A stretch of 64,000 nt of DNA from Escherichia phage ECO4, in sequence record NC_054911.1; one strand, written 5' to 3'. Position 1 is the stretch's first letter. Every line of letters begins with the position of its first letter. Below are positions 617-24,774 of this stretch, in pieces. The position numbers and the translations under genes are program-made. The notes beneath the pieces were generated by a model. It had not been told where the DNA came from and searched no databases. It saw only the letters and a program-made list of their open reading frames with translations.

Positions 617-2421
617 TGAAACAAAATATTAATATCGGTAATGTTGTTGATGATGGTACCGGTGACTACCTGCGTAAAGGTGGTATAAAAATAAATGAAA
701 ACTTTGATGAACTTTATTATGAACTTGGTGATGGAGATGTTCCATATTCAGCCGGTGCCTGGAAAACTTATAATGCTTCATCTGGACAAACACTAACGGC
801 AGAATGGGGAAAATCATATGCCATTAACACTTCATCTGGAAGAGTAACTCTACAACTTCCTAAAGGAACCGTTAATGATTATAATAAAGTAATTAAAGCT
901 AGGGATGTATTTGCAACATGGAATGTTAATCCAGTTACTCTAGTAGCCGCTTCTGGTGATACAATTAAAGGGTCGTCATCGTCAGTTGAAATTAATATTC
1001 AATTTAGTGATTTAGAGCTCGTTTATTGCGCTCCAGGACGCTGGGAGTATGTCAAAAATAAGCAAATTGATAAAATTATCAGTTCAGACATTAGTAATGT
1101 AGCTCGTAAAGAATTTTTAGTCGAAGTTCAAGGGCAAACAGACTTTTTAGATGTTTTTAATGGAACTAGTTATAATGTCAATAACATCAGAGTAAAACAT
1201 CGTGGTAACGAATTGTATTACGGCGATGTATTTAGCGAAAACAGTGACTTTGGCTCTCCGGGCGAAAATGAAGGCGAATTAGTTCCTCTTGATGGATTTA
1301 ATATTCGATTAAGACAGCCTTGTAATATTGGTGACACTGTTCAAATTGAAACATTTATGGATGGTGTATCACAATGGAGAAGTTCATATACAAGACGCCA
1401 AATAAAAGTACTGGATTCAAAACTAACATCAAAGACTTCTTTAGAAGGAAGCATTTATGTTACTGATTTATCGGCGATGAAATCAATTCCATTCTCCGCA
1501 TTTGGATTAATTCCAGGAGAACCTATTAATCCTAATTCTCTTGAAGTTCGTTTTAATGGAATTTTACAACAACAAGCTGGAACAGCCGGATATCCTCTGT
1601 TTTTATGTGAAGGCGCTAATTCAGATACGCAAGAAGGATGTATATCTCTTGGTGGCGAATGGAAAGAATCAAACACCGATTATTCTATAGAATATGAAGA
1701 CGGAAAACCTATCAGTCTTTTATTTGATAGAAAATTTGAATCCGGTGACATTATCGTTATAACATGGTTCAATAATGATTTAGGAACTCTTTTAGAAAAA
1801 GATGACATTATTGAATTAACTGATGACCGTTATGTTAGTAAAGGATCATCTACTGAAGTTACTGGTGATGTAGCCTTAACAGATTTTGATAAAATCGGTT
1901 GGCCAAATGTTGAAAAAGTTGATTCTTATACTAGAACGTATAATTCAATATCATCTATTTTCGACAGCATTTATCCTGTTGGTTCAATTTATGAAAATGC
2001 TATAAACCCAAATAATCCGGTGACTTATATGGGATTTGGTTCATGGAAATTATTTGGTAAAGGACAAGTTTTAGTAGGATGGAATGATGATGTTACAGAT
2101 CCAAACTTTGCATTAAACAATAATGATTTAGATTCTAGCGGAAATCCTTCACATACCGCCGGTGGAACAGTTGGTACAACATCAGTAACGCTTGAAAACG
2201 CAAATCTTCCTGCAACTAAAACCGACGAAAGAGTTTTAATTGAAGACGAAAATGGATCGGTTATTATTGGAGGTTGCCAATATGACCCAGATGAAACTGG
2301 TCCTATATATACAAAATACCGTGAAGATTACGCAACAACAAACTCTTCACATACTCCTCCTGCTAATATTAGTAATATTCAACCGTCTATTACTGTATAC
2401 CGTTGGATAAGGATTGCATAA
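616..2421 (+). CDS. 10: baseplate wedge protein gp10
   Basis: 601-aa ORF, N-terminus [23 protein letters not shown] recognised as T4 gp10 (602 aa); synteny 9-10-11-12. Confidence 0.93.
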
Positions 2422-3080
2422 TGAGTTTACTTAATAATAAAGCGGGAGTTATTTCCCGCTTAGCAGATTTTCTTGGTTTTAGAACTAAGAAAAATGATAT
2501 TTCGGTTATGAATAATCAGCCAGTAGGTGCTGTAACAATTTCACAAATAGCAAAAGGTTTTTATGACCCAAATGTAGAATCTGCTATTAATGATGTTAGA
2601 AATATGGCAGAGCAACAGGTTGGAGCTGTATTAGTTAATATAAGCGGCGTATCTCCTACTGGAGTGCAACAAACAGACTACTGGTCATTTGAAGGAACTG
2701 TCAATGATACTTCAGCCAAACCGGGTGACACAGTTATTGTTAACATGTTTGGTATTCCAGTTAAAGCTACTAATGGAATGACTTCAATCGAATTTACCAG
2801 TGCCGTTAGAACAGCTCTACAGGAAATGGTTGCAAAATTTATTGCAATTGATTCATTTGAAGACCATCCTACCATAGGAAATAAAATACAAGTTAAGTAT
2901 TTAGATAACCAAGAACATATCTTAGAACAATACTCTGATAAAGGAATTACTTTCAAACAAGAAATAATTTCTCCTTCTAAACCTGGATACGGAACTTGGC
3001 AATTATTAGGTGCGCAAACTGTCACGCTAGATAGTCACACACAACCTACGGTATTTTATTATTTTGAGAGAATAGCATGA
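2421..3080 (+). CDS. 11: baseplate wedge / short tail fibre attachment protein gp11
   Basis: 219-aa ORF from ATG 2421 ([10 protein letters not shown]), matching T4 gp11 size; track start 2403 is an upstream extension. Confidence 0.9.
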
Positions 3081-4627
3081 GTAACAATACATATCAGCAC
3101 GTATCAAATGAATCAAAATATGTTAAATTCGATCCTACCGGATCGAATTTTCCTGACACTGTCACGACAGTGCAGTCTGCATTATCAAAAATAAGTAATA
3201 TCGGCGTAAATGGTATTCCTGATGCAACTATGGAAGTTAAAGGAATAGCAATGATTGCGTCAGAGCAAGAGGTTTTAGATGGAACTAATAATTCTAAAAT
3301 CGTTACACCCGCTACATTAGCAACAAGATTATTGTATCCAAATGCTACTGAAACTAAGTATGGTTTAACGCGCTATTCAACAAATGAAGAAACATTAGAA
3401 GGCTCAGATAATAATTCATCAATAACGCCGCAAAAACTGAAATACCATACTGACGATGTGTTCCAAAATAGATATTCGTCTGAGTCATCAAACGGGGTTA
3501 TTAAAATATCATCTACACCTGCAGCTTTAGCTGGAGTTGATGATACTACGGCAATGACTCCATTAAAAACGCAAAAACTTGCAATAAAATTAATTTCACA
3601 AATAGCTCCTTCCGAAGATACTGCATCAGAATCTGTGAGAGGTGTAGTTCAATTATCTACTGTTGCGCAAACTCGTCAAGGAACTCTCCGCGAAGGATAT
3701 GCAATTTCTCCGTATACCTTTATGAATTCTGTTGCAACACAAGAATATAAGGGTGTTATACGTTTAGGAACACAATCGGAAATTAACAGTAATTTGGGAG
3801 ATGTTGCTGTAACAGGTGAAACATTAAATGGTCGAGGAGCTACCGGTTCTATGCGTGGGGTAGTAAAATTAACGACGCAAGCCGGTATTGCCCCTGAAGG
3901 TGATAGCTCTGGAGCATTAGCATGGAACGCAGATGTAATTAATACTCGCGGTGGACAAACTATTAATGGTTCTTTAAATTTAGATCATTTAACAGCAAAT
4001 GGAATTTGGTCACGCGGCGGAATGTGGAAAAATGGCGATCAACCTGTTGCCACTGAAAGATATGCGTCCGAAAGGGTTCCAGTTGGAACTATTATGATGT
4101 TTGCTGGAGATTCAGCTCCTCCTGGTTGGATTATGTGCCATGGTGGAACTGTGTCAGGAGATCAATATCCTGATTATAGAAACACAGTTGGAACGAGATT
4201 TGGTGGCGATTGGAATAATCCTGGCATTCCTGATATGCGAGGTCTTTTCGTCAGAGGAGCTGGTACTGGTGGTCATATTTTAAATCAACGAGGGCAAGAT
4301 GGTTACGGGAAGGATAGACTTGGTGTAGGATGTGACGGAATGCATGTTGGCGGGGTTCAAGCACAACAGATGTCATACCATAAACATGCTGGCGGTTGGG
4401 GAGAATACCAAAGACATGAAGCTCCATTTGGCGCGTCCGTTTATCAAGGATATCTTGGAACTAGAAAATATGCCGACTGGGATAATGCTTCATACTTCAC
4501 TAATGATGGATTTGAATTAGGTGGACCGAGAGATGCCCTTGGTACACTTAATCGTGAAGGATTAATTGGTTATGAAACTAGACCATGGAATATATCATTA
4601 AACTATATTATTAAAATTCATTACTAA
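3077..4627 (+). CDS. 12: short tail fibre protein gp12
   Basis: 516-aa [17 protein letters not shown]-terminus and C-terminal NISLNYIIK motif typical of T4 gp12; synteny. Confidence 0.93.
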
Positions 4628-20414: not shown

Positions 20415-21419
20415 TTAGCTCACCAACTCAATCCAAGCCGGACGAAGTACATCTTGTACCATTTTAACTAATTCCTTTTTAATCAAAGAAGGATTATCTG
20501 CTTGAGTTAGAGTAATACCTTCACGAGAAGTTTCTTCCAAAATATCTTGGACAGTTAGCCCCATCACCTTTCCAAAATCCTTTGGACCAATTTCGCCAAT
20601 TTTAGAAATAACGTTATTTACTCGGTTCAGTGTAACGTAACAAGCTAAAATTCCCACCAATTTGTTATCAGCTTCTGACAATTCAACTTTAGCTTTAATA
20701 GGCTTATCAGACTTTTTCTTTTCACTAAATTTAGAATTCTTGCATTTGATGGCTACACGATTGCGATTAGGCAGCCAAGAAGGCTAACAAGGTTTCAATA
20801 CATATCCTTCAGCGGTAAATACTTCGCCTTTGGCTTCGGCATTCCAAACGCATTTATTTGCATCAACTAATCCAGCATGGTCTACTGTAAAATTATAATC
20901 TTGGACGACAGAATCTAAATCATTTGGCAATTTAATAAGCTCTTCAAATTTACCGCGACCTAAAAGTGGAGCCATTTTAAATTTAAATGTATTGCAGAAT
21001 GATTCCATCATATAATCATCGACATAAGTCACGTCACCACTTTCTGTAGTGACAATAATGTCAAATACATAAAAATCTTTATCACCATAATCAACATTCT
21101 TCTGAATGCCAGGTCCAGCGAATTCGCCAAAAACTTGATAAGTCACAACAGCTGAAGTTTCCATAATATCTTGTACTGCTTTAATGGAATCAGCGTAATT
21201 CTTTAGAATAATTTCATACCCAAAGAAATCTTCAGCAGGAAGAATCGGTCCAGTACGTTTAGCGCAAGTTACTTTATCACGCTCAATAATCAATGAGAAA
21301 TTTGTGCCGTGAATCTTTTCACGAGCTACCCATTCGCCGCCAGTCAATCCCAAGCTATAAAGTTTTTCAATAAATTTAGAGTTGTAATGATTTTCAAGAC
21401 TGCTATACTTTTTAAACAT
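20415..21419 (-). pseudogene. rnlB: RNA ligase 2 (rnlB) interrupted by an in-frame amber (TAG) codon at codon 212 of a 334-codon frame
   Basis: Single frame of exactly 335 codons (334 aa + stop, the T4 Rnl2 length) from ATG 21419 to stop 20415; only interruption is TAG at 20784-20786; I translated the 34 codons between fragments and found no other stop; N-terminal part has the ligase KxHG adenylation motif (EKIHGTN). Confidence 0.7.
20784..21419 (-). CDS. rnlB: RNA ligase 2 N-terminal 211-aa truncated product (nucleotidyltransferase region)
   Basis: ORF with GAGGA SD before ATG 21419; ends at the amber codon; remaining 122 codons continue in frame to 20415. Confidence 0.7.
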
Positions 21420-21909: not shown

Positions 21910-21975
21910 GTTATCGAGTTGGTGCCATTATATACATCATTTTCTGATTGTGTTTTGTGTGCTTTCAAAATGAAG

Positions 21976-21996
21976 AAAGGGGCCGAAGCCCCTTTC
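21976..21996 (-). terminator. rho-independent terminator after hoc
   Basis: Coding-strand AGGGGC-TTCG-GCCCCT followed by TTCTTCATTTTG. Confidence 0.65.
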
Positions 21997-21998
21997 GA

Positions 21999-23417
21999 TT
22001 ATGGATAAGTATAGATGATACCAGTTTCTAAAGCAGTTTTATGGATGATGTATCCATTACGTGATTCTTGAACATCAACTTCTGGATAATCTTTCATCAT
22101 CTTCTGAAGCGTATAACGATGCAAGTAGTACTTACTATCTGGATCTTCAGTTTTCCAATCTTTACCTTCTTCAGTCATTTTTTGGATTTCATCCATAACC
22201 CACCAACCGCACCAGATATAAGCTGAAGTACGATGTGGAAGAGGATGAACATAAGGCAATTCACCTTCTGGTTCCGGAGCAACTTTATCAGTTACCTGAA
22301 CTTGACCTGTTGTTTTAACTGTTTTGCTATCATAGTCAGTTGCTGTAACGACAGCAGTAACTTCAATAGTTTGACTTCCAACAGATGAGGTATCAACAGT
22401 ATATACGTTAGTTGACCCTTCTACAGGAGAAGAATCTTTCTTCCATGAGTAAGTAATTTGTGCTTCTTCTGGAGCATCCGTAACATTAGCAGTAAATGTA
22501 GCCGAAGCATCTTGCTGAACGTTAATAGAAGGAGGAGTCAATGTAACCTGTGGATTCATTGTCTTCTTATTAACTGTCAATGATACTTCATTAGAAGTAA
22601 CTTCCTTTTCATTGTAATTTTCTGCTGTTACTTGGGCTACGCATTTAATTCTTTTTACTCCACTTGTAGTTGGAGTATAGCTAAATGTAGAGCTAGTTTC
22701 TCCACCAACTTGTGAATCATCTACATACCACTGATACGTAGCAGATGCTCCATCAGGTTGAGAAGCTAAGGCAGCAGTAAATTGAACTGGGGTTCCAATT
22801 ACTCCAGCTGAAGGACTAGCAGGAGTTACTGCCAATGTAGTTGTCTGTGTCTTTTTATTAACAGTCAGTGATACTTCATTAGAAGTAACGGTTTTTTCAT
22901 CATAATTTGTCGCGGTTACTTGAGCTACACACTTGATTTTTTTAACTCCGCTTGCGGCAGGAGTGTAATTGAATGTAGCAGAAGTCGCTTCGTCTACAGG
23001 AGAACTGTCAACGTACCATTGATACGTAGCAGATGCACCTGATGGCTGCGAAGCTAAAGCAGCGGTAAATTTAACAGCTGTTCCAATTACTCCTGCTGGA
23101 GGACTATTGGGAGTTACGGCTAAGGTAGTCGTCTGAGTTTTGTTTTTGACTGTGATAGTTGTAGTAGCTTCTGCTGTTTCAGCTTCAGATTCTGGAACTG
23201 TATTTGTTGCAACAACTTTAATAGTCTTTTGACCAGCAGGACCTTTTAATACATAATCAAAAGTTGCTTCAGACCCATCTTGTGGAGCATTATCTACACT
23301 CCAAGCATAAGTAATAGTTCCACCTCCAGTTTCACCACTAGGTGCAGCAGTAAACTGCTTGGTTTCATCAATAACTCCTGACGGTGTTTTAGGAGTTATA
23401 TCAACTGTAAAAGCCAT
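21999..23417 (-). CDS. hoc: highly immunogenic outer capsid protein Hoc, 472 aa with four tandem Ig-like domains plus C-terminal capsid-binding domain
   Basis: N-terminus MAFTVDITPKTP and C-terminal YIWCGWWVMDEIQKMTEEGKDW capsid-binding region typical of Hoc; ~96-aa Ig-like repeats; about 96 aa longer than T4 Hoc (376 aa). Confidence 0.93.
   Translation of the reverse strand: MAFTVDITPKTPSGVIDETKQFTAAPSGETGGGTITYAWSVDNAPQDGSEATFDYVLKGPAGQKTIKVVATNTVPESEAETAEATTTITVKNKTQTTTLAVTPNSPPAGVIGTAVKFTAALASQPSGASATYQWYVDSSPVDEATSATFNYTPAASGVKKIKCVAQVTATNYDEKTVTSNEVSLTVNKKTQTTTLAVTPASPSAGVIGTPVQFTAALASQPDGASATYQWYVDDSQVGGETSSTFSYTPTTSGVKRIKCVAQVTAENYNEKEVTSNEVSLTVNKKTMNPQVTLTPPSINVQQDASATFTANVTDAPEEAQITYSWKKDSSPVEGSTNVYTVDTSSVGSQTIEVTAVVTATDYDSKTVKTTGQVQVTDKVAPEPEGELPYVHPLPHRTSAYIWCGWWVMDEIQKMTEEGKDWKTEDPDSKYYLHRYTLQKMMKDYPEVDVQESRNGYIIHKTALETGIIYTYP
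22566..23141 (-). repeat. tandem direct repeat, two diverged 288-bp units encoding Hoc Ig-like domains 2 and 3
   Basis: Protein residues 93-188 and 189-284 are the same length and highly similar (KTQTTTLAVTP...SNEVSLTVNK); DNA units 22854-23141 and 22566-22853 are clearly related but diverged (identity not computed). Confidence 0.75.
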
Positions 23418-24156: not shown

Positions 24157-24774
24157 ATGTACCACTTTGTATATGAAACAACAAATCTAATAAATGGTAA
24201 AAAGTATATAGGAAAACACTCTACTGATGACTTGAATGATGGTTACCTTGGTTCCGGTAAGGCAATTCAGCAGGCTATAAAGAAATATGGTGAAAACAAT
24301 TTCTCTAGAACAATACTAAAAGAGTTTAAAACTTCCGAAGAAGCGTACATGTATGAAGAAGAAATTATAACTCCTGAAATAATAAAAAGCAAAAATTATT
24401 ATAATATGAAACCTGGTGGAATTGGTGGAATTGTTATGACTACAGAGGTTATAGCAAAGATGAAAGAATCTTCCGCTAAGAGATTTGAAAACTCACCGGG
24501 CACGGTATTAGGTACAACTTGTTACACTAATGGAACTAAAAATATTTTTATTAAACCTGGAGAACTTGTTCCAGAAGGATTTGTAAAAGGGATGGTTCAT
24601 CCTAATAGAAAGTCCAGAAAAGGATGTAAAGTCAAACCAACTACCACAGGAACTTTTTGGGTCAATAATGGTGCAATAAATAAATTAATACAACCAGACG
24701 GTATTATTCCCGACGGATTTATTAAAGGTCGTCTCATGAAAAGAGATTCTAAAGGCAAATTTAGTAAGGCATAA
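24157..24774 (+). CDS. segE: free-standing GIY-YIG homing endonuclease (Seg family)
   Basis: 205-aa ORF with N-terminal GIY-YIG motif (HFVYETTN...GKKYIGKH) and basic C-terminal DNA-binding half; sits between inh and uvsW with its own TATAAATA; segE versus segD naming is uncertain. Confidence 0.8.
   Translation: MYHFVYETTNLINGKKYIGKHSTDDLNDGYLGSGKAIQQAIKKYGENNFSRTILKEFKTSEEAYMYEEEIITPEIIKSKNYYNMKPGGIGGIVMTTEVIAKMKESSAKRFENSPGTVLGTTCYTNGTKNIFIKPGELVPEGFVKGMVHPNRKSRKGCKVKPTTTGTFWVNNGAINKLIQPDGIIPDGFIKGRLMKRDSKGKFSKA

Follow-up and report, generated by a model that had tools for sequence, protein, structure and literature searches.

Hoc proteins are built from a conserved anchor and a variable string of Ig-like domains, as described by Fokine et al. 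(2023; PMC10385173) from 650 homologues. In their examples the number of Ig-like domains ranges from one, in Enterobacter phage PG7, to ten, in Serratia phage Muldoon, and varies greatly even between close relatives of T4 (PMC10385173), so that variable Ig-domain number in Hoc homologues is already a published phenomenon. The Hoc protein of T4 forms an 18-nm fibre of Ig domains with an anchor at its C terminus, and it is dispensable in the laboratory (PMC10385173). Fu et al. (2024; PMC11853027) reported a domain-loss "variant Hoc" with two Ig domains in phage PNJ-9, in which residues S183-T185 of D2 (an SLT motif) bind MUC2, and residues E29 and G33 are reported to bind MUC2 in PNJ-6 Hoc (PMC11150434). 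Our literature searches returned no explicit account of a D2 tandem duplication or copy-number polymorphism in a Hoc of 472 aa.

The window analysed here is a stretch of 64,000 nucleotides from Escherichia phage ECO4 (NC_054911.1), and the features discussed below are listed in Table 1. When the product of the minus-strand ORF was compared with T4 Hoc (PDB 5vf3_Z, 376 aa) by phmmer, the two matched with an E value of 7e-219. In the alignment, residues 1-103 of the window protein pair with T4 residues 1-103 and residues 189-472 pair with T4 residues 93-376; the window protein exceeds T4 Hoc by exactly one 96-aa unit. The T4 coding sequence is 1131 nt long. The initial annotation had given lengths of 376 aa for T4 Hoc and 472 aa for the window protein, and both values agree with these records. 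No other ORF of at least 60 aa lies inside hoc on either strand. The local genes follow the standard arrangement (24 - rnlB - 24.2 - 24.3 - hoc - inh - seg - uvsW), with hoc between 24.3 and inh as annotated in AR1, RB14, and KIT03, and a 20-kb stretch around the window hoc is 98.2% identical to Escherichia phage AR1, a Tequatrovirus. The gene and locus are the same as those of T4 Hoc (376 aa; PDB 5vf3, 8t1x, and others; PMC10385173). By sequence and gene order, the ORF is hoc, and the phage is of the T4 type (Tequatrovirus); the encoded protein decorates the head and is non-essential.

Table 1. Positions of hoc, its encoded domains, and neighbouring features in the window
Feature	Position	Strand	Remarks
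hoc CDS	21999..23417	(-)	472 codons, ATG start, stop codon 21999-22001; taken from the ORF list
Ig-like domain 1 (D1), aa 1-92	23142..23417	(-)	AF2 beta-sandwich, pLDDT ~86-94
Repeat unit 1 (domain 2a, D2a), aa 93-188	22854..23141	(-)	Type 1; central loop SSPVDEATSA
Repeat unit 2 (domain 2b, D2b), aa 189-284	22566..22853	(-)	Type 2; central loop DSQVGGETSS
Ig-like domain 3 (D3), aa 285-380	22278..22565	(-)	AF2 beta-sandwich, pLDDT 84-93
Putative C-terminal capsid-binding domain, aa 381-472	22002..22277	(-)	Near-identical to T4 Hoc 285-376
17-nt tract	23020..23036; second copy 22732-22748	(-)	GCATCTGCTACGTATCA; identical in both units; candidate crossover site
21-nt tract	22869..22889; second copy 22581-22601	(-)	GTTACTTCTAATGAAGTATCA; identical in both units; longest run in common
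Intrinsic-terminator-like hairpin	21975..21996	(-)	GAAAGGGGCTTCGGCCCCTTTC, then T-rich tail; 9-bp stem, 6 G-C pairs
rnlB (RNA ligase 2)	20415-21419	(-)	In-frame TAG at codon 212 (stop 20784-20786)
GIY-YIG-type homing-endonuclease ORF	24157-24774	(+)	205 aa; between inh and uvsW, ~740 bp upstream of hoc

The strong terminator-like hairpin begins 3 nt past the hoc stop codon, and a "terminator" is annotated at the equivalent place 3' of hoc in phage NBG2. Immediately upstream of hoc and of inh, the minus strand has no canonical T4 late promoter (TATAAATA). The counterpart of the GIY-YIG ORF is named segE in AR1, RB14, and KIT03. A homing endonuclease adjoining hoc could drive local gene conversion and might help account for hoc alleles that differ among near-identical genomes. 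On the other side of hoc, codon 212 of rnlB, which encodes Tyr in AR1 (VLKPCYPSW), is a stop codon in the window (VLKPC*PSW), leaving a 211-aa fragment and a residual 88-aa ORF in a gene that differs from that of AR1 by only 8 mismatches over 1005 nt with no indels. A real nonsense allele, an amber mutation, or an error in sequencing could each account for the TAG.

We modelled the window Hoc with AlphaFold2 (AF2), using an alignment of 26 long-form sequences. Over residues 1-378 the model contains four consecutive beta-sandwich domains, for the most part with pLDDT values above 90. Confidence in the C-terminal domain was low, the alignment being shallow and made up of closely related sequences. 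Foldseek searches of the PDB with this model returned strings of Ig-like domains (ICAM-5 D1-D4 and cadherins), as well as the N-terminal fragment of RB49 Hoc (3shs, E 7e-10). The Pfam PKD family matched unit 2 at aa 197-267 with 39.7 bits (cut-off 23.5), and aa 289-360 of D3 gave matches to Ig_3/Ig_2 that fell under the curated cut-offs; D3 pairs with T4 residues 189-284 in the phmmer alignment. The last 92 aa have a dN of only 0.009 relative to T4 Hoc. By analogy with the T4 protein (PMC10385173), this C-terminal domain would be the capsid-binding one, and its near identity to that of T4 suggests that the window Hoc binds mature capsids in monomeric form, centred on the gp23 hexamers. The architecture is D1 - D2a - D2b - D3 - C-terminal anchor. 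The protein had been described in the initial annotation as having four domains; the structure prediction corrects this to five, namely four Ig-like domains and the anchor. The linker TV-(K/N)-(N/K)|KT recurs at all three inter-domain junctions, where the DNA is similar and rich in A.

Relative to T4 Hoc, the window protein has one more D2-type Ig domain (aa 93-188), placed between D1 and the T4-like D2. Tandem Repeats Finder reported one tandem array in hoc, at 22560-23135, with a period of 288, 2.0 copies, 77% matches, and a score of 684. Units 1 and 2 align without gaps and are identical at 217/288 nt (75%) and 78/96 aa (81%), and the unit boundaries given in the initial annotation proved exact. 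The best identity between adjacent 288-nt blocks in hoc was 219/288, compared to 102 +/- 5 (maximum 116) when the codons of the gene were shuffled 200 times; the similarity of the repeats is thus far greater than chance would give. The unit borders fall on the inter-domain linker, and the array is an in-frame intragenic tandem duplication of one whole structural domain. The central observation, a diverged in-frame duplication that supplies a complete additional Ig-like domain, is borne out by Tandem Repeats Finder, the phmmer alignment to T4 Hoc, the ungapped unit alignment, and the AF2 model. D2a and D2b share 81% aa identity; every other pairing of D1, the D2 units, and D3 is roughly 30-42% identical and represents a paralogy older than that between the two D2 units.

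Synonymous divergence points to a great age for the two units. Between unit 1 and unit 2, dS is about 1.35 and dN is 0.13 (dN/dS 0.10), and 45 of the 71 nucleotide differences occupy third codon positions. Since dS in the flanking hoc domains of the window is only 0.18-0.45 when compared with T4 or RB14, the units must have separated long before these hoc alleles diverged. D2a and D2b are old paralogues with synonymous sites near saturation, both under purifying selection, and with a duplication this ancient, the event did not take place in the lineage of the window phage itself. Each unit has a much closer counterpart in another phage. Unit 2 is 91.7% identical in nucleotide sequence to T4 D2 (dS 0.19), and unit 1 is 88.5% identical to the sole D2 of the 376-aa RB14 Hoc (dS 0.28), while dS between the D2 domains of T4 and RB14 is 0.80. 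On these values, unit 1 is orthologous to RB14 D2 and unit 2 to T4 D2. The RB14-type short Hoc thus has a type-1 cassette like window unit 1 as its only D2 and lacks the T4-like type-2 unit that the window also has. Because each unit is the sole D2 of some short allele, which of the two is called "extra" depends on the reference chosen: the description of an extra domain in the initial annotation has meaning relative to T4 only. The window D1, D3, and C-terminal domain are each nearer to RB14 than to T4.

The long form of hoc is common in public records. The best 60 tblastn matches in a phage collection, among them PP01, Sf23, G28, UFV09, ECP52, and PhiZZ30, are all 1416-1422 nt long (472-474 codons), the top full-length match being UFV09 with 98.9% aa identity. 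We estimated the proportion of long forms from two systematic samples of 60 evenly spaced rows each, sorting rows into long and short by their span in the record and the number of pieces. With the window hoc as the query, the spread sample contained approximately 15-17 long and 33-35 short rows (the latter including T4, T6, RB32, and HY01), and with T4 hoc as the query it contained approximately 19 long, 30 short, and about four two-Ig forms. By this estimate, roughly one in three Tequatrovirus-type hoc genes in the GenBank phage records is long; the isolates in GenBank are a biased sample of nature. The 569-579 records with at least 80% coverage are unusable as a count of long forms, as the paralogous pieces of short alleles join into a single full-coverage place. 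Likewise, megablast searches with unit 1, through which the two allelic D2 types came to light, give no count of long alleles because they also match short type-1 alleles (RB14, RB27, and CM8). Among the best 120 cluster representatives from a collection of 5.8 billion proteins, 80 were 376 aa, 29 were 472 aa, and eight were 568-570 aa in length; several 472-aa clusters are large, with 167, 72, 68, and 58 members.

The long Hoc proteins of PP01, AR1, Sf23, G28, UFV09, ECP52, and approximately 200 other Tequatrovirus records (472-474 aa) share the architecture of the window protein and are 93-99% identical to it in aa sequence, with point differences only; in the records they go by the names Hoc, head decoration protein, or PKD domain protein. 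The long hoc is an ordinary, widespread allele class that has already been deposited and annotated, with nothing distinctive to the window phage. The initial annotation implied that this Hoc is unusual, an implication that does not survive the uniformly long best 60 matches, the proportion of about one third among Tequatrovirus hoc genes, and the ancient date of the duplication. It had set its claim against the possibility that the longer Hoc is the common state among close relatives, and this is largely what was found: the best 60 matches are all long, as are about a third of Tequatrovirus hoc genes. Among the closest genome-level relatives AR1 is long (474 aa, as annotated), whereas KIT03 and G157lw are short (376 aa). 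The genes 24.2, 24.3, and inh of these three phages are 95-100% identical to those of the window, and near-identical genomes can therefore differ in D2 copy number.

Across these phages, the D2 module behaves as a cassette that is present in one, two, or three copies. The single copy is type 2 in T4 and type 1 in RB14, and the two-copy order is type 1 followed by type 2, as in the window. The first unit was nearer to window unit 1 than to unit 2 in 29 of 30 two-copy representatives. Only three aa columns, all in the central loop, are strictly diagnostic between unit 1 and unit 2; on the most diagnostic loop columns, the second unit was type 2 in 22/30 two-copy alleles (26/30 when near-matches are included), and on the same columns the 80 short-form representatives comprised 46 with a type-1 and 27 with a type-2 D2. 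In certain short alleles, D2 is 97-98% identical to window unit 1. Relaxed columns show mosaics between unit 1 and unit 2 in both directions. In some two-copy and most three-copy alleles, the D2 array ends with a unit of a third sequence type. The three-copy proteins (568-570 aa) of phages UGKSEcP1 and UGKSEcP2 and metagenomic relatives have 96-aa D2 units in tandem between D1 and D3, as in the window, but with three units rather than two, the additional one often being of the third type; their usual order is type 1, type 2, type 3. The mosaics that run both ways are compatible with either an ancestral duplication followed by recurrent loss or the assembly of the array from two single-copy alleles.

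The single D2 of KIT03 hoc (nt 720-1850 of the locus examined, L026) is a three-segment mosaic. Unit nt 1-48 are T4-like, nt 49-102 are of the unit 1 type at 12/12 informative sites, and nt 123-288 are of the unit 2 type at 43/43. The switch from unit 1 to unit 2 falls within nt 102-122, an interval that holds the 17-nt tract common to both units (GCATCTGCTACGTATCA). We rejected a simple deletion chimera, with a 5' part from unit 1 and a 3' part from unit 2, as the origin of this domain, since the T4-like first 48 nt make it multi-segment. The switch from unit 1 to unit 2 is clean; it is consistent with unequal crossover and is what recombination between units or types would be expected to give, without proving a simple deletion.

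Other Hoc forms differ from the window protein by whole Ig modules. The 283-aa Hoc of EP01 (L004, OM135583, nt 601-1452) consists of D1, D2, and the anchor, having lost D3 where the window has gained a domain; this is the architecture of the "variant Hoc" of PNJ-9 (PMC11853027), and these proteins belong to the same family as the window Hoc, separated by steps of one Ig module. In phages EH2, F2, and Jbel, hoc spans approximately 845 nt, akin to that of EP01. RB69-like (Mosigvirus-type) Hoc proteins encoded on two IMG/VR contigs (L009 and L012, with the hoc ORF near locus positions 1650-3330) are 471-472 aa long with four Ig domains and an anchor, as in the window, but it is D3 rather than D2 that is duplicated, segments 3 and 4 being 59-78% identical. 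By this comparison, the D3 tandem duplication of the RB69-like phages is independent of the Tequatrovirus D2 duplication. In IMG/VR, the RB69-like lineage has Hoc proteins of 282, 377, and 471-472 aa; the scan gave 21 loci, only four of them of the Tequatrovirus type, too few for an estimate of frequency. The Hoc homologue of Serratia phage Muldoon, with 10 Ig domains in 1174 aa (PMC10385173), also combines a conserved C-terminal anchor with a variable Ig string, although it is far longer and distantly related.

We considered how the two-unit array might otherwise have arisen. Tandem repeats can in general be mis-assembled, and the assembler might have expanded the repeat; here, however, the units differ at 71/288 positions and their longest exact run is 21 nt, so that reads place unambiguously, the reading frame is intact, and the same structure recurs in many independently sequenced genomes. 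The chance of an artefact is practically nil. A recent duplication private to the lineage of the window phage, which would make its Hoc unusual among T4-type phages, is very improbable as well. In its favour, the two homologous units lie side by side in the same frame, and the T4 laboratory reference has a single copy. Against this, dS between the units (1.35) far exceeds both their divergence from their orthologues (0.19-0.28) and that of the flanking domains from T4 and RB14 (0.18-0.45), and the two-unit arrangement with the same positional types is present in hundreds of records, unit 1 of phage G28 being 100% identical in nucleotide sequence to that of the window. The survey of long forms refutes a private origin.

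The remaining alternatives concern the direction of change and its consequences. The array could have been created when unequal recombination in a mixed infection joined an RB14-like type-1 allele to a T4-like type-2 allele at the linker, in which case the short form would be ancestral. T4-type phages recombine very actively, both cassette types exist as the sole D2 of short alleles (46 and 27 of 80), and the values given above (88.5% between RB14 D2 and unit 1, 91.7% between T4 D2 and unit 2, and dS 0.80 between the two short-form domains) fit such a joining. It must still account for D2 types that diverged far more than the domains around them; the three-copy alleles and the third cassette type fit a standing multi-copy array equally well, and D1, D3, and the C-terminal domain are all nearer to RB14, leaving no clear two-parent signature. 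We regard this origin as possible but lean against it. It is also rather unlikely, in our estimation, that the differences in D2 copy number are neutral to selection, a dispensable protein simply varying in length and the added domain being without function. Hoc is non-essential in the laboratory (PMC10385173), forms with two, three, four, and five Ig domains all circulate, and close relatives vary in copy number without an obvious correlate, all of which would suit neutrality. Yet purifying selection on both units is strong (omega 0.10) even though they are old, a copy without any use ought to have decayed or been lost when substrates for recombination are present, and the independent arrival of RB69-like phages at 471-472 aa through D3 hints at selection on fibre length or valency.

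The explanation that we favour, with good confidence, is that the window carries a widespread long hoc allele with the order D1-D2a-D2b-D3-anchor, in which two old paralogues represent a D2 cassette that probably undergoes recombinational turnover, and which would encode a longer fibre. D2 copies would be gained and lost by unequal homologous recombination, probably at the conserved stretch that codes for the linker (TV-K/N-N/K | KT) and at the identical 17-21 nt tracts within the units; a crossover at the linker or within these tracts would leave every product in frame. One added Ig module would make the Hoc fibre approximately 4-5 nm longer than the published 18 nm of T4, and the added D2 would offer a further adhesive surface of the D2 type, on which the SLT motif is repeated. 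The long form keeps an intact T4-like anchor. The added domain may in this way affect surface reach, adhesion, and display, as the initial annotation proposed. Overall, its observation is confirmed, and its interpretation is partly supported.

These considerations have a practical side. The SLT motif occurs twice in the window Hoc (183-185 and 279-281), the equivalent of T4 D246 is D342, and E29 and G33 are both carried in D1. Since published residues such as T4 D246 and PNJ-9 S183-T185 shift by 96 or occur twice in the long form, work on Hoc display or mucus adherence in Tequatrovirus phages other than T4 should begin by checking the hoc length class. The discovery value is small, given that hundreds of public phage genomes already carry the long allele class under the name Hoc, and spelling out the D2 duplication is a descriptive refinement of a known phenomenon and not a new kind of system.

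A broader reading, which we put forward tentatively and consider doubtful as it stands, is that D2 forms a recombination-driven cassette system with at least three types, arrayed in one to three copies and kept in the population because balancing or niche-specific selection acts on fibre length and adhesive valency, with RB69-like phages converging on the same four-Ig length via D3. Our literature searches returned no explicit account of such a system. If this reading were true, the system would resemble the repeat-number variation of bacterial surface adhesins, and copy number and cassette type would be natural variables for the mucus-adherence model of Hoc. The pattern of Hoc copy number offers a basis for a cheap test of fibre length and valency against mucin binding. 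D2 copy numbers of one, two, and three, along with the independent D3 duplication of the RB69-like phages, illustrate the modular evolution of a capsid adhesin.
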